A stretch of DNA of 64,000 bases from Desulfomonilia bacterium (GCA_050014195.1 JBEKDT010000001.1:410024-474023); one strand, 5' to 3'; counted from the first letter of the stretch, positions 25,220 to 34,076 are shown. Numbers and translations: made by a program. The notes: generated by a model from the letters alone, not told the origin.

Positions 25220-25636
25220 TTACTCACCGATGATTTTCACCAGCACCCGCTTTTTCCGCCTCCCGTCGAACTCACCATAGAAGATCTGTTCCCAAGGTCC
25301 AAAATCGAGTTTACCATCAGTGACTGCCACGACCGCTTCACGTCCCATGATCTGGCGTTTCAAATGTCCGTCCGCATTATCCTCACCTACATTATGGTGG
25401 TACTGAGAAACAGGGCCGTGAGGAGCGAGCTTTTCGAGCCATACTTCAAAGTCATGGTGCAAACCACCCTCGTCATCATTGATGAACACACTGGCTGTGA
25501 TGTGCATTGCATTCACCAGCACGAGACCTTCCTTTACGCCGCTTTCTTTCAGGCACTGCCTTACTTGAGGTGTGATGTTGATGAACTCGACACGTTTGTC
25601 CGTGTTGAACCAGAGTTCCTTGCGAAAGGAATTCAT
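25220..25636 (-). CDS. YjbQ/UPF0047 family protein (secondary thiamine-phosphate synthase-like)
   Basis: 138 aa with [10 protein letters not shown]...NADGHLKR family motifs. Confidence 0.65.
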
Positions 25637-26291: not shown

Positions 26292-26861
26292 TTACCTTCT
26301 TTTCTTATAATCCTTTCCCGAGCAGAAGGCCTTGCCTGCATAGTCTCCAACTTTCCAGTATTGGTTGTCAGGCATGGTTAAAAGCAGGGGGTCCATCTTC
26401 TTGATATCGGGCCTGCCCTCCGTAAGGCATCCCTCACCGGCATAAGCCCCGACAATCTCACCTATGTAGAAGGTATTGGTAGGGAACTCCATGGTCTTAT
26501 TGAGCTCGCACTCCAAACACAAAGGGCATTCCTCGATCATGGGTGCAGTTTTGAGCTTGCCGTAGAATACATGAAAGAGGCCGGCTTTATCGGCCTTCTC
26601 GCCTGATACTATACCGCAGTAGTCGGTGATCTCCATCATCTCGGCGTTGGGGAAATTTATGCTGAAAGTCTTAGTCTCGGCTATGCCTGGACAGGTGTAG
26701 TGGTGCCTGCCCACACCCACGCCGATCATCGGCGGATTCGCATTGACCCGGGTGATCCACCCCAGGGCCATGAAGTTGGGCTTGGCGTTCACCTGGGTTC
26801 CCAGGAGGGTGACCGGCATGGGAAAGACAAACGTGTTCGCCCCGATATCCACTTTCTTCAA
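26292..26861 (-). CDS. Flavoredoxin / flavin reductase-like FMN-binding protein
   Basis: 189 aa with an FMN-binding split-barrel (FVFPMPVTLLGT...NFMALGW). It overlaps the start of the large oxidase gene. Confidence 0.7.
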   Translation of the reverse strand: MKKVDIGANTFVFPMPVTLLGTQVNAKPNFMALGWITRVNANPPMIGVGVGRHHYTCPGIAETKTFSINFPNAEMMEITDYCGIVSGEKADKAGLFHVFYGKLKTAPMIEECPLCLECELNKTMEFPTNTFYIGEIVGAYAGEGCLTEGRPDIKKMDPLLLTMPDNQYWKVGDYAGKAFCSGKDYKKRR

Positions 26862-29800
26862 GCACTCTTCCCCTTCAGATAATTAATCATGGGCTGAGTG
26901 ACCAGCGGCACCACCTCTCCTATCATGTGGGGCATGAGGTTGGCAACGACCTTTGGCATGAGCTCAGGCATCTGCTCGCGCATGTAGTCGGGCATGGGGA
27001 TGCGCTCGGAGACCTTCTTGAGCATAGTAGGCATGACCTTGGGCATCATCATGGGCAGCAGCCTCGGGAACAGGACCGGGAACATGGGCTTCATGAGGTC
27101 GAGCGCACCCGGAATTTTGCCCATAATGCGCATCATGGGCCCCATGCCGAACGGCATGGCAGAGATGAGCTCGGACCACATGGTACCCATGAGGTCGGCG
27201 AACCCCTGCGGTGTCATGAGTGCTATCATGGCCTCGAACACGGCCCACTGCTTCTGCACTTCGGGATTGGGATCAGGGAAATCATACCCCAGGGCGGAAG
27301 AGGCGAATCGCGCCAAGTCCACTATTTCGAGCGGCATCTTCTTTTTTTCCGCAGTGACCCGGAACTGGAACTCGCAGCACGGGCACAGGGCCAGGACCTT
27401 CTGGGCTCCGGCATCCAATGCCTCGTTCAGACGCGTCTCCCCGATATCGGCGGCTACCAGGGGCTCCTTGAGGAGGTTGAGCACGCTCCCGCAGCAGTGC
27501 GCCTCGGCATGATGATAATCCATCTCCACGAATTTCACATGGGGGATCGCCTTGATGAGGTCCCGTGGCTCTTCATAAACACCCGATACACGGCCCATGT
27601 GGCACGAGTCATGCCAGGTTACCGTAACCTCTTCCTGCCCCGTATCCGGGAAGGTGAACTCGCCCGATCTGATCTTTTCCGAGAGGATCTCGCTGTAGTG
27701 GCGTGCCGTTATGTCATAATCGATACCCAGCTTTTTAGCCCATGTCGGGTAGACATGTCGCCACATCATATTGCATGCAGGGCAGGATGTAATAACGGTG
27801 TCACTGCCGGCTTCTTTGACAGCCTTAATGTTCCTCCTCATGATCGCTTCAAACACATCCCACTTGCCGGCAACCAGCATGGGCGTGCCGCAGCAGTTTT
27901 CCTTGTTGCCAACATAGGTGAAATCCACCCCTGCCTTATCCAGCAGCCGCACACTCGCCATGCCGATGTCCTCTTCCACATAGCTCGCGGTACACCCTGC
28001 GAAATAGACGTTCTTGGCCTTTGTGCCGGGGCCGTGCTTCTCCTTGAGGTCTTCTGGGAACCACTTGGCTCGGTCCTTACGGTAGCCGGCCCATATGTTG
28101 CCTTCCTTCATGGCTGCCGCCGACATGATCTCAAAGGGAGGGAAGGTCATCTTCTTTTCCTCATCTACGAGCTTGCCCCTGAGCTTCATCCAGGAAGGCT
28201 CTATGGGAAGCGCTGCAGAGCAACGGAAATTGCAGAGCTCGCAGGTGGTGCAGACCAGTATGGTGTCCACCATCTTCTGGTTCCACTCCTGCTTGCCTTT
28301 CATATACTCCCGCAACCAGTACCACTTGCCCCTTGGGCTCTGGCTCTCCCATCCGCGGCCGTAGAACTGATCACACTCATCCACACAGTAGCCGCACTGG
28401 GAGCAGCTGTAGGCATACCAGGCCACATCAGGCGGGATATCCCGAACATCTTTTTCAGGCCTCTCCCCCACTTCCGTGATAATGGCATAACTGAAAGGCC
28501 TGATGAGCGGCTCGAATATGCTCCCCAGTCTGACGGCAGTCCCGATGAGTCCTCCTCCGAGCACCTTGCCGGGGTTCAGTATCCCCTTGGGGTCGACCTT
28601 CTTTTTGAATGACTTCATCCGGGCAAGGCGGTCTTTTCCGAGGACCGCCTTTGCCTTGTTCTTGAAATAGAGCCCTGTGGCATACGCTCGTCCGCCATAT
28701 TTTTCAGCAATCTTCATGACCGTGAGCGACAGAGGGAAGACGAAGTTGTAGCTGAACTTCCGCTCATCGCTCGGGATGAATCCGAGGATGACCACCTCGG
28801 GCTTGCCGGATGCCGATTTCCTGATGACCACCCCCTCCTTGACCACGGGCTGCTGGATGGTGCTCTCCACCTTCTTCATGAAGTCGCCGAAGGAAGACAG
28901 CGGGATGACCACTTCGGCGGGTACAAGACTTGGACCCAAGCGCTTCACCACCATGAGCTTGAATCGGTGCTTCCATTCATGGTACGCAATTTTATCACTC
29001 AGGATCTCTGCCTCGCACAGTTTGATGATCTTGCCGAGGCCGCTCATAACCTGCCCTGCGTCCTTCTTACGGAAGGTGAGCGTGATGATGTAGGATGCAG
29101 GCAGGAGCACCCGCTCCTCTGCCGGGTGGCCCCAGTGCTCCATCATAGGTGCCTGGTTCTTCATCTCCGCCATCTTCGGGTTGATGAACACGATGGACCA
29201 TATGGGCAGGCCTTCGGATATCATTGCCTCCATGAGCTTCTGGAGGTCATGGGGGTTCGGACAGCCGATGGAGACCAGATCCATGGGCTCATCAAGCTGT
29301 ACCTTAATGGTGATCTCGCCGATCAGCCCGGTTATGCCTTCCGCATCACTGATCATATCGAGATCTTTCCCCTCGAACACGCTGACCGTACCATCGGGAA
29401 GCACGACGCGGGCACTCAGCACGATGTCCCTGAACCAGCCGGCTTCAAACGAACCGAAGCCTGCACCTCCCTGGGCAAGCCAGCCTCCTGCTGTTGAGCT
29501 CGGGTAGCTGGAAGGATAGGTAAGCAGCGTGAGGCCTTTCTTCTTCAGCTCGCGGTCAAGCCCTTCCCAAACAATACCAGGCTGGACAGTGGCTGTAAGC
29601 TTATCTTTATCGATAGAAAGCACCTTCTTCATGCGGTAGAAATCCACCACGATGCCGTTCTCAACGGGCAAAACTCCGCCGTAGCCCGAAGAAGCCTTGC
29701 CCCTCGGGGTGAGCGGGATATGGTTTTTGGCGGCCCACATCACCAGTTCTTTCAGCTCCTCTTCGCTCTGGGGCTGCACCACGGCATCGGGGGTGGTATC

Positions 29801-29944
29801 GCCGATCAAGGGCTTGATAAGGCTCGGCATGGCGGCTATGTCATGCCCATAGAGCATTCGCTCCACGTCATCAAAGGTCACACGGTCCTTGAATTTTTCC
29901 TTGAGATATTCTTTATGGGCTTTGCTGAGATTCGACATGCTCAT
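26858..29944 (-). CDS. FAD-linked oxidase fused to 4Fe-4S and tandem CCG (HdrD/GlpC-like) domains (YdiJ-like 2-hydroxyacid dehydrogenase family) with a Met/Pro-rich C-terminal tail
   Basis: N-terminal FAD_binding_4 region (PRGKASSGYGG, GIVVDF). Central CSQCGYCVDEC and CTTCELCNFRC Fe-S motifs. Two CCG-containing segments (NCCG, HCCG). The last roughly 115 aa carry repeated MP/MxxM motifs; 1028 aa in total. Confidence 0.85.
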   Translation of the reverse strand: MSMSNLSKAHKEYLKEKFKDRVTFDDVERMLYGHDIAAMPSLIKPLIGDTTPDAVVQPQSEEELKELVMWAAKNHIPLTPRGKASSGYGGVLPVENGIVVDFYRMKKVLSIDKDKLTATVQPGIVWEGLDRELKKKGLTLLTYPSSYPSSTAGGWLAQGGAGFGSFEAGWFRDIVLSARVVLPDGTVSVFEGKDLDMISDAEGITGLIGEITIKVQLDEPMDLVSIGCPNPHDLQKLMEAMISEGLPIWSIVFINPKMAEMKNQAPMMEHWGHPAEERVLLPASYIITLTFRKKDAGQVMSGLGKIIKLCEAEILSDKIAYHEWKHRFKLMVVKRLGPSLVPAEVVIPLSSFGDFMKKVESTIQQPVVKEGVVIRKSASGKPEVVILGFIPSDERKFSYNFVFPLSLTVMKIAEKYGGRAYATGLYFKNKAKAVLGKDRLARMKSFKKKVDPKGILNPGKVLGGGLIGTAVRLGSIFEPLIRPFSYAIITEVGERPEKDVRDIPPDVAWYAYSCSQCGYCVDECDQFYGRGWESQSPRGKWYWLREYMKGKQEWNQKMVDTILVCTTCELCNFRCSAALPIEPSWMKLRGKLVDEEKKMTFPPFEIMSAAAMKEGNIWAGYRKDRAKWFPEDLKEKHGPGTKAKNVYFAGCTASYVEEDIGMASVRLLDKAGVDFTYVGNKENCCGTPMLVAGKWDVFEAIMRRNIKAVKEAGSDTVITSCPACNMMWRHVYPTWAKKLGIDYDITARHYSEILSEKIRSGEFTFPDTGQEEVTVTWHDSCHMGRVSGVYEEPRDLIKAIPHVKFVEMDYHHAEAHCCGSVLNLLKEPLVAADIGETRLNEALDAGAQKVLALCPCCEFQFRVTAEKKKMPLEIVDLARFASSALGYDFPDPNPEVQKQWAVFEAMIALMTPQGFADLMGTMWSELISAMPFGMGPMMRIMGKIPGALDLMKPMFPVLFPRLLPMMMPKVMPTMLKKVSERIPMPDYMREQMPELMPKVVANLMPHMIGEVVPLVTQPMINYLKGKSA

Positions 29945-29990: not shown

Positions 29991-31280
29991 TTAAAAATAC
30001 CATGTGAGTCCGAAGTCAAGGCTGTCCTCGCTCAGCGTGGACTTGAGGGAGACTGCCTGTCCGAACGGGTCGGTGCCGGACTCAGAGATGGTCTTCTCGA
30101 AGGCATGCATGTAGCCAAGGTTCATGGAGAACTGCTTGGTGAAATTGTATCCAACACCGCAGGTCACATGCTTTTCAGCAACGGCCGGGAAACCGATGAT
30201 CCGGAAGGTCTCATAGTAATAGGCAGGGAATATGGTTCCCTGGACATTGACAGCGCTGTTGGGCATGCCGGTTGATGGATTGAAGCTCCCATTAAATCCG
30301 TTGTGCTCCTCAACAGGGTTTTTCGCATAGTTGAATCCGGCCCTGACAGTGAATTTCTTGATCGGCTCCGCCTTCAGCCCGATGGCATAGACCAACTGAT
30401 TTTTCCAGTCAAAATCTTTATAGCCGGCGGCATTCGCCCAGTTCAGCCATTTGACATCTGTCTCCACAAGAAGATTCATTGCAGAGGGGATCTCATATGA
30501 AGCACCGACCCCAAGCTGAGTGGGTGACTCCAGCTTCAATCTATTCAGGTTGGGCAGGTTGATGTTGTCATGGATTGTCTCCTGGGGAGAAGTATAGCTC
30601 AATCCCAGGTTGATTGAATCCGTGGGCATGAAGATAAGACCCAACTGGCCCCCGGCGGAATAGGCCGGTGAAGTGCCGTTCCTCAGATCGAGCATTGCAT
30701 AGTCGATGTGAACTGCCATACCAAGGGAGAGTTTGTCCGTGAGAAGCACACTTAAAGCCGGTGCGAACTTCATGACCTGCAGTGAGGTATAATCTCCCTG
30801 GATGAGAGGTGCGGTTTTCCCTCCCCCGAAATTATAATATGAAGAATTATCAAGTGCCCCACCACGATAATCTACGCCGAGACCCGTCACGCCATACGCT
30901 GCAATCCCGAACCTCCACACAGGAAGCTTATCCGTGATAGGCACGGACAGGCCTATGGCAGGAATGGCATAGACAGAACTCGCAGATGAGTCCTCTGCAA
31001 CTGACCCTGCATGTACGACCTCTGCCTTCACATGGGGCATGAAGAGCGTACCTGCAAAATCAAAGGATGATGACGGGCAGTACGGGCCGACGCACATGGC
31101 GGCAGGGTTGGCGAACACGGCACTGATCGCATCCTGCGGGGCGGCAATGCCTGTCCCTCCCATTGCACGGGCATTGGGTCCGATGCCGATCAGGTTATCG
31201 CCGTTCGTGGCAAAGGCTCCTGAACCAAACGCCATAATGACCAGCAATATGATCGCCGAACTTATTGAACTTCTTTTCAT
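29991..31280 (-). CDS. Outer-membrane transport protein, FadL/TodX (OMPP1) family
   Basis: Signal peptide (MKRSSISSAIILLVIMAFGSGAFA), alternating beta-strand pattern, and a C-terminal ...LTWYF. Confidence 0.8.
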   Translation of the reverse strand: MKRSSISSAIILLVIMAFGSGAFATNGDNLIGIGPNARAMGGTGIAAPQDAISAVFANPAAMCVGPYCPSSSFDFAGTLFMPHVKAEVVHAGSVAEDSSASSVYAIPAIGLSVPITDKLPVWRFGIAAYGVTGLGVDYRGGALDNSSYYNFGGGKTAPLIQGDYTSLQVMKFAPALSVLLTDKLSLGMAVHIDYAMLDLRNGTSPAYSAGGQLGLIFMPTDSINLGLSYTSPQETIHDNINLPNLNRLKLESPTQLGVGASYEIPSAMNLLVETDVKWLNWANAAGYKDFDWKNQLVYAIGLKAEPIKKFTVRAGFNYAKNPVEEHNGFNGSFNPSTGMPNSAVNVQGTIFPAYYYETFRIIGFPAVAEKHVTCGVGYNFTKQFSMNLGYMHAFEKTISESGTDPFGQAVSLKSTLSEDSLDFGLTWYF

Positions 31281-31363: not shown

Positions 31364-31699
31364 TTACTTTAAGTTTCTGTCTATAAAAGCAGCGAGTTTG
31401 GCCTTGGGGAGTGAACCAATCTGCGTCCCCCGGACCAGTCCTCCTTTTATGAACAATAATGTGGGTATGCTCCGGACTCCGTATTTTCTCGATGTCTCAG
31501 GACTCTCATCAACATTCACCTTCACCATATTCACCCGTCCGTCATATTCCTTGGCTATGTCTTCCAGAACCGGTCCGATAGCCCGGCAGGGTCCGCACCA
31601 TGGTGCCCAGAAATCCACCAGGGCAGGGCTTTCAGACTTTATAACAATGGCATCAAACGTGTTATCATCGGCATGGGTTACATATTGCTTGCTCTCCAT
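31364..31699 (-). CDS. trxA: Thioredoxin
   Basis: WCGPC active site; 111 aa. Confidence 0.9.
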   Translation of the reverse strand: MESKQYVTHADDNTFDAIVIKSESPALVDFWAPWCGPCRAIGPVLEDIAKEYDGRVNMVKVNVDESPETSRKYGVRSIPTLLFIKGGLVRGTQIGSLPKAKLAAFIDRNLK

Positions 31700-31835: not shown

Positions 31836-32516
31836 ATGGATATACTGAAACAGATTCAGGACATCCCTCTCTTCCAGGGGCTCTCCAATGATGTATTGGA
31901 GGCCCTTTCCCTGCGTGTCCTGATCGGGACGTACCAGCCGGGAGAGGTGATTGTTGCCGAGACGGACCTGGTCAAGCAGTTCTTTGTCGTTATTACGGGG
32001 CAGGTGAAACTTTCCAAGAGCTCGATAGAGGGCAAGGAACAGACCCTGTACCTTTTAGGACAAGGGGAACCTTTCGGCCTGTGCACCGCCTTTGCCACCC
32101 ATGACTTTCCCGCCGAGGCCCTGGCGCTCAAAAAGTCCGATATCCTCACCATTCCCGGAGCAGCCGTGGAGGAGATCGTCATGAAAGAGCCGGCACTCCT
32201 CCTGAACATCCTGAAGGTGCTATCCAACAGGCTCAAGGAATCCATGAGCCTCATCGAGTCCCTGGCGCTCAAGGAGATCCCCCAGCGCCTGGCCTCATTC
32301 ATCATCCTCACCCAGCTAAGGGAAAATAAGGACAAAGGCGGCCGGATCGAGTTGTCAATTACCCATCGCGAGCTGTCGAAGATACTCGGGTCAACACCCG
32401 AGGCCCTCTCCCGTGCGTTGAGAAAAATGCAGAACGATGGAGTATTGGAAGTTCAGGGAAGGGTAATCACTATCCTGAACCACAAGGCCCTGGAGGAACT
32501 CTCGGAAGGTGAGTAG
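31836..32516 (+). CDS. Crp/Fnr family transcriptional regulator
   Basis: N-terminal cNMP-binding fold and a C-terminal HTH (SITHRELSKILGSTPEALSRAL). Confidence 0.85.
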   Translation: MDILKQIQDIPLFQGLSNDVLEALSLRVLIGTYQPGEVIVAETDLVKQFFVVITGQVKLSKSSIEGKEQTLYLLGQGEPFGLCTAFATHDFPAEALALKKSDILTIPGAAVEEIVMKEPALLLNILKVLSNRLKESMSLIESLALKEIPQRLASFIILTQLRENKDKGGRIELSITHRELSKILGSTPEALSRALRKMQNDGVLEVQGRVITILNHKALEELSEGE

Positions 32517-32750: not shown

Positions 32751-34076
32751 TTATTTCCGAGGTGCAACTCTTCGGTAGTTCATATTTGACATCAGTGCAA
32801 ACATCATCGAGGTGAAACTCCGCGTATTCTTCAAGGTAGAAACGGCTTTGCGAAGCAACACCGGCCAGGCGTAAATCTGCCGGTGGATCTCGATCATTTT
32901 TTGGGAAAGCTGCTCAGGCTCCATGCTGCCGGGACGATGGATCACCTCGGTCATGTCATAATGATTCCAATCTATGGGGAAGTTAGTATAGAGCAACCGA
33001 TTCTCTTTATAATACCTGTCGAAAACCCGAGTGCCGGCAAGCGGCGTAAGAAATGTGGTTTGCATCACATCTATTTGACTTCGGATCATAAAGTCGGCAC
33101 GTTGCTGCAGTTTATCAGCCGTATCACCATCCATTCCGAAGATGAAGGCCCCTAAAACAGCAATCCCTGCCTTGTTGATGCGACGGAATGCCTGGGAGTA
33201 GTAATCTACTCCCCGCTTGATATTGAGTTGTTTGTGAACCTCTTCCAAGGCACCCTCATCCTCTGCTTCAAGCCCAAGGAAGACCATCCTGCAACCGGCA
33301 CGCCTCGCCCAGAAAAGCACTTCCTCATCATCCCCGAAGTTAAGCGAGGCCTGGCAGAACCACCATTTGTTCAACTTACGCTCCACCATACCCTTGAAGA
33401 TCGCCAATGCCTGATCCCGTGACTCTTTGCCGTACCCGATGATATTGTCATCCACAAAGAATATCCTTTTCTCAGGGATAGTCTCCAGTTCAGCCAGTAC
33501 TTCCCCGGGGGGACGCCGCCGGTATCGCTTCCCATTAAAGGCTGTAACCGAGCAGAATTCGCAGTCCATGGGACAACCCCGCGAGGTCTGCACGGAGGCG
33601 AACATATAGCGTGGATGAAATAAGTCACGTCGCGGGTTCGGTGCACCTGACAGGTCGGTCCATCCTCCCTTGTATATCTTTTGCAGATGTCCTGCCTCAA
33701 CATCCGATATTACGTGCAGCCAGACGGCCTCTGCTTCGCCTATGACAACAGCATCAACATATTGAAGGGCTTCTTCCGGTCGGATTGACGCATGAATCCC
33801 GCCTATGACCACAGGTACCCTCCGCTGTCGATAGATCGAGGCAATTTCATATGCCCGATTGGCAGAAGCGGTAAAGGCTGTGATGCCCACTAAATCCGCA
33901 TCTTGATATGAGAAAGACTCCCAGTTCTCATCAAGCAGCTTTACCTTCCAGGAAGATGGTGTGACTGCTGCGACAATTCCCAAGCCGATAGGGGGAAACC
34001 GGGAAGACCTGTTGACCGTGAGACCAACACGCGCAGGGTTCACAGGGTTGATCAGGACCAGTCTTGGGCGCTTCAT
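32751..34076 (-). CDS. B12-binding domain radical SAM protein
   Basis: N-terminal cobalamin-binding Rossmann-like region followed by CPMDCEFC (CxxxCxxC); 441 aa. Confidence 0.8.
   Translation of the reverse strand: MKRPRLVLINPVNPARVGLTVNRSSRFPPIGLGIVAAVTPSSWKVKLLDENWESFSYQDADLVGITAFTASANRAYEIASIYRQRRVPVVIGGIHASIRPEEALQYVDAVVIGEAEAVWLHVISDVEAGHLQKIYKGGWTDLSGAPNPRRDLFHPRYMFASVQTSRGCPMDCEFCSVTAFNGKRYRRRPPGEVLAELETIPEKRIFFVDDNIIGYGKESRDQALAIFKGMVERKLNKWWFCQASLNFGDDEEVLFWARRAGCRMVFLGLEAEDEGALEEVHKQLNIKRGVDYYSQAFRRINKAGIAVLGAFIFGMDGDTADKLQQRADFMIRSQIDVMQTTFLTPLAGTRVFDRYYKENRLLYTNFPIDWNHYDMTEVIHRPGSMEPEQLSQKMIEIHRQIYAWPVLLRKAVSTLKNTRSFTSMMFALMSNMNYRRVAPRK

Follow-up and report, generated by a model that had tools for sequence, protein, structure and literature searches.

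A Met- and Pro-rich C-terminal domain, predicted to fold as an autonomous helical unit, in a family of single-chain FAD/Fe-S/CCG oxidoreductases

The 64,000-nucleotide stretch of a Desulfomonilia bacterium genome analysed here (GCA_050014195.1 JBEKDT010000001.1:410024-474023; hereafter, the window) encodes a 1028-amino-acid (aa) oxidoreductase that combines flavin adenine dinucleotide (FAD)-binding, iron-sulfur (Fe-S) and CCG domains and ends in a segment rich in Met and Pro. The gene occupies positions 26858..29944 of the minus strand, as do all the features of this protein given below, and was delimited from the list of open reading frames (ORFs), Pfam matches, and full-length orthologs. Our results showed an enzyme of a known kind whose C-terminal segment is a domain both new and unannotated, with a function that we infer below. 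Composition, conservation, and AlphaFold2 modelling placed it at aa 886-1028 (26861..27289), and it is, according to the models, an autonomously folding, all-helical domain that is specific to one enzyme family.

The bias in composition was clear. Between aa 881 and 1028, 23 Met (15.5%) and 20 Pro (13.5%) were found, compared with 33 Met (3.7%) and 5.6% Pro along aa 1-880, a Met excess with a binomial P of 9e-9. The initial annotation of this DNA had described a Met/Pro-rich tail with more than 20 Met, and this richness is real: the peptide quoted there is the true translation, with 21 Met in the interval considered (aa 914-1028). Of the arrangements attributed to these Met residues (MP, MxxM, and MxM), MxxM is represented by six pairs and MxM by only one, the commonest pair being MxxxM (8). 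Apolar residues and Pro make up 64% of the domain versus 48% of the rest of the protein, and the mean hydrophobicity is 0.24 in the tail versus 0.04 for the remaining sequence. The tail contains no Cys and a single His, which is conserved in only 54% of the sequences.

Position-wise conservation was analysed on an alignment (A4) of 108 sequences with 35-89% identity, to which the invariant residues mentioned from here on refer. In this alignment, the junction between the second CCG domain and the tail (aa 877-901, ARFASSALGYDFPDPNPEVQKQWA, 27241..27316) showed invariant G886 and W900 residues and high conservation of P890, D891, P892, and V896, so this junction is probably fixed rather than flexible. 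The invariance of G886 and W900, together with a first predicted helix at aa 893-909, sets the start of the domain at around aa 886 (position 27289 of the window). The start given initially, position 27205, was thus too far downstream.

A search with the whole protein retrieved 120 full-length proteins of 1022-1076 aa, with 71-95% identity at 99-100% query coverage. In the alignment of these 121 sequences, the tail (aa 901-1020) was gap-free and had a mean column identity of 84%, compared with 74% for FAD_binding_4, 71% for FAD-oxidase_C, 74-80% for the CCG domains, and 87% for the ferredoxin segment, the only part of the protein that surpasses it. Therefore, what had been called a low-complexity tail ranks second in conservation within the enzyme and has a compact predicted fold. 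When the tail alone was used as a query, 434 proteins were found, the best 120 of them sharing 76-89% identity with it, and many of these tail matches were C-terminal fragments that still hold part of a CCG domain. Among 57 GTDB orthologs, nonsynonymous divergence (pN) was 0.114 in the tail and 0.205 in the core of the protein, while synonymous divergence (pS) was 0.66 (0.659) and 0.71, respectively, with synonymous sites saturated. With pS saturated, pN in the tail reaches only about half its value in the core, so the reading frame is translated, and purifying selection acts more strongly on its tail than on the catalytic part. Saturation of the synonymous sites also indicates that the high identity across phyla is the consequence of constraint, and not of recent transfer.

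Conservation within the tail was position-specific for both of its dominant residues. Met was conserved in at least 90% of the sequences at positions 910, 919, 930, 938, 951, 966, 984, 988, and 1000, and Pro in at least 91% at positions 924, 931, 945, 956, 960, 964, 968, 972, 983, 985, 993, 997, and 1005, with the regularly spaced P956, P960, P964, P968, and P972 conserved in 92-100%. Even in relatives with 35-55% identity, 22-31 Met per approximately 130 tail residues remain. Met is encoded by one codon only, from which codons for Leu, Ile, and Val can be reached by one substitution, and its persistence through saturating divergence suggests that Met itself is under selection.

The distribution of the domain was analysed with a HMMER profile of the tail (A1), used in an exhaustive search against 1.84 billion cluster representatives (E<=0.001). 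Only 248 proteins were recovered, mostly short fragments; the nine matches of at least 390 aa all hold the domain at their C-terminal end, six of them being full-length (1002-1030 aa), and the domain was seen in no other architecture in this search. Starting from five divergent members as the seed, another profile search added around 105 further full-length relatives, with 38-51% identity to the seed, including proteins from Thermanaeromonas toyohensis, Dehalogenimonas, Candidatus Methanoperedens, Bipolaricaulota, and Clostridia. The comparison with orthologs that the initial annotation had proposed thus had a plain outcome, with the tail present and gap-free in the 120 close and in all of the approximately 105 distant full-length relatives, and as every distant relative retains it, the tail dates back to the origin of the family. 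No extra Pfam domains were detected in the longer members (1076-1287 aa).

With one genome per GTDB species, at least 333 species were found to carry a close relative of this ~1025-aa enzyme. These belong to Dehalococcoidia and Anaerolineae (Chloroflexota), Zixibacteria, Syntrophales, Desulfarculaceae, Geobacteraceae, Gemmatimonadota, Coatesbacteria, Ignavibacteria, Actinomycetes, and Thermoleophilia, as well as to the archaeal Methanoperedens. The nearest relative, with 89% nucleotide identity over the gene, is encoded by an uncultured deltaproteobacterial metagenome-assembled genome (MAG, L005). The sole Met-poor tail seen in the family, with 9 Met, is that of the Dehalogenimonas sp. MAG P0351, in which the Pro pattern is retained and Leu, Ile, or Val mostly take the place of Met. 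Neither this enzyme family nor the Met/Pro domain was the subject of any paper found in a literature search on Met-rich, CCG, and FAD-binding proteins, on GlcD-HdrD fusions, on YdiJ, and on monotopic anchors.

Modelling of the full-length protein with AlphaFold2 on the 108-sequence alignment gave a mean predicted local distance difference test score (pLDDT) of 91.9 and a predicted template modelling score (pTM) of 0.91, with pLDDT values of 87-93 along the tail. The domain modelled alone, from 38 trimmed sequences, showed identical helices with similar scores (mean pLDDT 91.7, pTM 0.81), which points to an autonomous compact fold instead of a set of loose helices. Four of the predicted helices are short (893-909, 912-920, 923-928, and 934-943), and the other two, of around 35 residues, span aa 947-981 (helix 1, 27002..27106) and 986-1023 (helix 2, 26876..26989), with six and five Pro inside, respectively, as assigned by DSSP on the model. 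The repeating unit of the domain is a hydrophobic-Met-Pro-x tetrad, clearest at aa 954-973 within helix 1, where it forms the run MFPV-LFPR-LLPM-MMPK-VMPT (27026-27085). The Pro signal peaks at period 4, and the hydrophobic moment at 90 degrees (0.43-0.56 over aa 946-1000) is greater than that at the alpha-helical angle of 100 degrees, which does not exceed 0.42 in the tail. The profiles of the two long helices are similar to each other (hhalign probability of 96%, E=3.9e-9, a score that composition bias may inflate), and an origin of both by internal duplication is suggested at this level. Their variable or polar positions are mostly basic in helix 1 (K952, R961, K969, K976/977, R981) and mostly acidic in helix 2.

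The tail belongs to no described family, with no Pfam or PDB match. Even at E<=10, the only Pfam hit on the tail was HEAT_EZ (E=0.26, 12.3 bits versus a cut-off of 27), no NCBIfam family was assigned, and nothing was found under E=0.2 in a sequence profile search of the PDB or under E=8 when the domain model was compared with the PDB by Foldseek. HEAT/ARM repeats were discarded, as HEAT_EZ stays below its gathering threshold and the match to the HEAT region of Mot1 is at chance level (E=0.2). The M domain of SRP54/Ffh was also discarded, with neither a match to the SRP_SPB family nor similarity to the M-domain fold. Dense Met is shared with SRP54 and calmodulin, the former also presenting it on a helical scaffold, and with the Cu(I) sites of CusF, Ctr1, and CueO, but none of these proteins has the regular Pro tetrads described above, nor any similarity to this domain in sequence or fold.

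The rest of the protein corresponds to the module order proposed initially, and confirmed here by Pfam, of an FAD oxidase, a 2x[4Fe-4S] segment, and two CCG domains. FAD_binding_4 (PF01565) covers aa 52-187 (29384..29791, E=2.3e-39) and is followed by a FAD-oxidase_C-like cap (PF02913) at aa 222-461 (28562..29281, 41.8 bits). The ferredoxin-like segment, of the dicluster Fer4_17 type (aa 513-579, 28208..28408), has two CxxCxxCxxxC motifs in which Cys 514, 517, 520, 524, 565, 568, 571, and 575 are invariant. Two CCG stretches (PF02754, E=6.3e-32) follow: the first and best one at aa 646-727 (27764..28009), with invariant C651, C684, C685, C721, and C724, and the second at around aa 776-870 (27335..27619, approximate limits), with invariant C781, C817, C818, C854, C856, and C857. 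Thus, all the features of a GlcD/GlcF-type fusion are present, namely FAD_binding_4, two CxxCxxCxxxC motifs, and two CCG domains. Neither a signal nor a Tat motif was found at the N-terminus (MSMSNLSKAHKEYLKEKF...), and the absence of such a leader from a protein with FAD and Fe-S cofactors indicates a cytoplasmic enzyme.

Assignment of the enzyme to a known activity was less straightforward. Searches with Foldseek on the full model and with phmmer put the N-terminus nearest to D-lactate dehydrogenase, glycolate oxidase, and alkyl-dihydroxyacetone phosphate synthase (AGPS), at about 20% identity, and the top Foldseek match of the whole model was mouse LDHD, with only the N-terminal D-LDH/AGPS fold recovered. 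However, the HxGDGNxH and EHG motifs of mouse LDHD (8jdc) and of 9qgz align to RKSASGKPEV and GGRAYATGLY, so the cap lacks the His/His/Glu metal site, which makes a simple D-2-hydroxyacid an improbable substrate. The cap domain shows instead conserved D393, R395, Y421, and Y426 residues (S-D-E-R and G-G-R-x-Y-x-T-G-L-Y). The enzyme had been described as hydroxyacid-oxidising, a label at odds with the replacement of the metal site of mouse LDHD and of related enzymes such as GlcD and D2HGDH, and from the sequence, a canonical D-2-hydroxyacid dehydrogenase activity is doubtful. The score against the GlcD equivalog TIGR00387 was 104.5 bits, below the cut-off of 567.9, and that against the NCBIfam model of GlcF was 53 bits, below 333. 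For the C-terminal half, the best NCBIfam matches were TfrB, the quinone-dependent LdhH, and GlpC, all far under their cut-offs, and the PDB entry 9ojn ("iron-sulfur-binding reductase") matched aa 559-879.

The name YdiJ-like, also given initially, was not sustained either, as the score against NF049975 was 65 bits versus a cut-off of 1350, along positions 49-215 only, and orthology with YdiJ was discarded. Against the E. coli protein, BLASTP aligned only 140 aa of the FAD domain, with 31% identity, plus a stretch of 59 aa. This D-2-hydroxyglutarate dehydrogenase of 1018 aa resembles our enzyme in length, in FAD_binding_4 and FAD-oxidase_C, and in having an Fe-S segment, but it has no Pfam CCG domain, it keeps the EHG motif, and it lacks a counterpart of the Met/Pro domain. 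Similar in organization are GlcD+GlcF and the FAD_binding_4 dehydrogenases with ferredoxin and two CCG domains (e.g., Dld-II/DVU3028 from Desulfovibrio), with the same modules in the same order and a logic of electron flow from substrate to FAD, Fe-S, and acceptor that is likely shared. In contrast to these, the enzyme described here is a single polypeptide, its metal site is missing, and it bears an extra helical Met/Pro domain of around 143 aa without a Pfam family. In E. coli K-12, ydiJ overlaps the start of menI, which encodes a menaquinone-biosynthesis thioesterase, on the same strand (L085, 5223-8686), a disposition that hints at a quinone link for YdiJ, a distant analogue.

Regarding the function of the domain, we favour, at a little under an even chance, a Met-lined hydrophobic docking module that would give this stand-alone enzyme access to the membrane or the quinone pool. 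Of the functions suggested in the initial annotation, which is thus supported in part, the membrane or quinone tether would be the one retained. About two thirds of the residues are apolar, more than a bundle of 143 residues is likely to bury, which suggests an exposed, Met-lined, and deformable surface or pocket. In addition, no segment of transmembrane grade was found in the tail (the highest 19-residue Kyte-Doolittle mean being 1.22), and no membrane subunit or electron carrier was encoded as a conserved neighbour in four diverse genomes and 59 GTDB loci, the latter being those holding the full gene that were used for neighbour clustering. As the enzyme is encoded alone, without a membrane or carrier partner gene and without a transmembrane helix, docking to a hydrophobic acceptor seems the most likely role. 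The Met-lined surface would adjoin the terminal HdrB-like non-cubane Fe-S site of the second CCG domain, and electrons would pass from the substrate to FAD, the two cubane clusters, the CCG clusters, and an acceptor placed at or under the Met domain, most plausibly the cytoplasmic face of the membrane and its (mena)quinone pool.

Such a docking module would have precedents among CCG proteins. SdhE, GlpC, and GlcF, the CCG subunits of quinone-linked enzymes, are thought to act as monotopic anchors through amphipathic helices (PMC2754724). They likewise have CCG domains and no transmembrane helices, and the C-terminal half of our enzyme has GlpC and the quinone-dependent LdhH among its top NCBIfam matches; nevertheless, the amphipathic helices proposed for these proteins lie inside the CCG protein, whereas here, a separate, added Met/Pro domain is proposed to serve. 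In EMO/EtfD proteins (SYN_02638, Rv0338c), HdrC-like and non-cubane (CCG) domains are fused to a dihaem membrane domain (bioRxiv 10.64898/2026.08.18.745454). There too, the Fe-S module forms a single chain with an extra element, in that case one that reaches the quinone pool, and we propose a functional analogy. In EMO, however, this element is N-terminal and consists of five transmembrane helices with two haems, while the extra domain described here is C-terminal, with no transmembrane helix and neither Cys nor a well-conserved His.

Several observations weigh against membrane or quinone docking. Checked for the features of a monotopic anchor, the domain, more hydrophobic than the rest of the protein and without a transmembrane helix, showed close to neutral charge (11 Lys and Arg versus 9 Asp and Glu, net about +2) and modest alpha-helical hydrophobic moments, with a maximum of 0.42, while classic in-plane anchors are usually more basic and amphipathic, and a period of 4.0 residues gives no straight amphipathic face on a regular helix. 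The compact, confidently predicted fold and the rigid junction would equally fit a globular domain with a Met-rich core. Moreover, many of the carriers are Dehalococcoidia, some members of which lack quinone synthesis, and it would be left unexplained why lipid contact should favour Met and not Leu or Phe. In a more specific and more tentative proposal, to which we give a rather low probability, the domain would be a three-layer bundle of "h-Met-Pro-x" helices whose thioether pocket would pass electrons from the non-cubane Fe-S site to menaquinone or to a hydrophobic sulfur substrate.

Part of what speaks against an anchor, namely the neutral charge and the modest amphipathicity, would fit a protein-protein interface, with the domain as a plastic Met surface for homodimerisation or for docking a soluble protein, either a partner or a substrate (for instance, a small thiol or redox carrier). 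Met patches of the SRP54 M domain and of calmodulin bind varied hydrophobic peptides, FAD-linked oxidases of this fold are often dimers, and very high, position-specific conservation above that of the catalytic domain is typical of interfaces; the compact predicted fold and the rigid junction would also fit. Still, there is no conserved partner gene nearby, the monomer is already modelled confidently without a partner, and no likeness in sequence or fold links the domain to the SRP54 M domain or to any other solved domain, and we regard this alternative as rather unlikely. The position of the domain directly after the second CCG domain, with an invariant junction, could also mean that it caps the HdrB-like site as a Met-lined pocket for a second substrate (an organic disulfide, polysulfide/S8, or an electrophile), the enzyme being a thiol-stress-induced donor:disulfide (or sulfane) reductase. 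In HdrB, the CCG clusters are the site of heterodisulfide cleavage (bioRxiv 10.64898/2026.08.18.745454). This proposal would fit the presence of a thioredoxin gene two genes upstream in the window and that of the only recurrent neighbour of the orthologs, a winged helix-turn-helix regulator of the ArsR family (~110-130 aa) encoded directly upstream on the same strand in 22 of the 59 loci (37%), for instance 14 bp upstream of the ortholog in locus L030. This regulator carries two conserved Cys ("ICKxLAD" and "ACDLV"), and among solved structures, it is closest to SqrR, HlyU, and BigR, which sense thiols or persulfides. However, its two Cys do not occupy the positions seen in SqrR and BigR, the window and most of the loci lack the regulator, no conserved sulfur-transfer genes were detected near the gene in the 59 loci, and no known sulfur-binding domain is similar; altogether, such a pocket seems improbable to us, more so than an interface.

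Much less can be said for the Cu(I)/Ag(I)-binding Mets motifs invoked in the initial annotation, in which the thioethers would sequester or sense soft metals as in CusF, CopC, Ctr1, and CueO. The density of Met is certainly very high, with 6 MxxM and 8 MxxxM, and the ArsR/SmtB family, to which the regulator found in 37% of the loci belongs, includes metal sensors. Nevertheless, the Met spacing, with a single MxM, is that given by helix periodicity, and unlike the Mets-motif sites of CusF, Ctr1, and CueO, the domain is part of a cytoplasmic protein with FAD and Fe-S clusters and no signal or Tat leader; in the cytoplasm, Cu(I) sites generally use Cys, absent from this tail, whose lone His is poorly conserved, while thioether sites typify oxidising compartments. 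In addition, no Pfam copper family matched the tail even at E<=10, the regulators are nearer to thiol-switch members than to the metal sensors SmtB and CzrA, and the hosts are strict anaerobes of sulfidic settings, where free Cu(I) is probably negligible, all of which makes metal binding very improbable. We give just as little probability to the oxidant-scavenging shield, also suggested initially, in which surface Met would be a sacrificial sink guarding the oxygen-sensitive Fe-S clusters. A high Met content beside Fe-S domains and a thioredoxin gene nearby in the window would be in line with it, but a sink needs abundant Met and not invariant Met/Pro positions on a fixed fold, no conserved methionine sulfoxide reductase gene was found nearby in the 59 loci, and most of the carriers are named as belonging to groups mainly known from anoxic habitats. 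Finally, only the biased composition would speak for an artefact, be it a reading frame lengthened by a frameshift or by read-through, or a functionless, disordered tail. Frame and length are shared by more than 330 species representatives and by hundreds of metagenome proteins, the tail has a pN of 0.114 against a pS of 0.659, and the structure is predicted with confidence. This leaves practically no room for an artefact, and the outcome that had been put forward as refuting, a tail missing in orthologs or made by a frameshift, was clearly negative.

The most constrained part of this enzyme outside its cofactor-binding segments is therefore a domain without known relatives, in which Met accounts for about a sixth of the residues and Pro for about a seventh, with eleven Pro within two long predicted helices. 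Cross-phylum identity of at least 72% at saturated synonymous sites points to an important role in anaerobic energy or redox metabolism. Knowing the ligand of the domain would identify the electron acceptor used by a large family of orphan enzymes, would show how CCG/HdrB-type sites are coupled to hydrophobic acceptors without membrane subunits, and would add a new domain family to the databases. If the thioether pocket were true, these proteins would represent a new class of self-contained, single-polypeptide dehydrogenase:acceptor oxidoreductases, widespread in subsurface anaerobes. Thermanaeromonas toyohensis is a cultured carrier, which makes experiments approachable, and the Met-poor tail of P0351 could be a natural test of the need for thioethers.

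In the window, the gene is followed by a flavin-reductase-like ORF (26292..26861, minus strand; Pfam Flavin_Reduct, E=1e-25) with a TTG start that overlaps the stop codon of the large gene, an overlap that suggests translational coupling of the two. Just upstream, a FadL/TodX-type outer-membrane protein, of the type that transports hydrophobic compounds, is encoded at 29991..31280 (minus strand; Pfam Toluene_X, E=4e-16), and beyond it lie the thioredoxin gene mentioned above (31364-31699, minus strand) and a divergent Crp/Fnr regulator (31836-32516, plus strand). The FadL-type protein and the flavin reductase were not found beside the orthologs in Dehalococcoidia and Zixibacteria chromosomes, T. 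toyohensis, a Methanoperedens contig, or the nearest relative L005, and neither thioredoxin nor the Crp/Fnr regulator is a conserved neighbour of orthologs elsewhere. A B12-binding radical SAM protein (32751-34076, minus strand) and a UPF0047 (YjbQ-like) protein (25220-25636, minus strand) have no evident link to the domain. On the opposite strand, two antisense shadow ORFs overlap the gene, at 26927-28612 and 26994-27512 (both plus strand), which are not genes; where the former crosses the tail, its His content is striking, since ATG becomes CAT when read in antisense.

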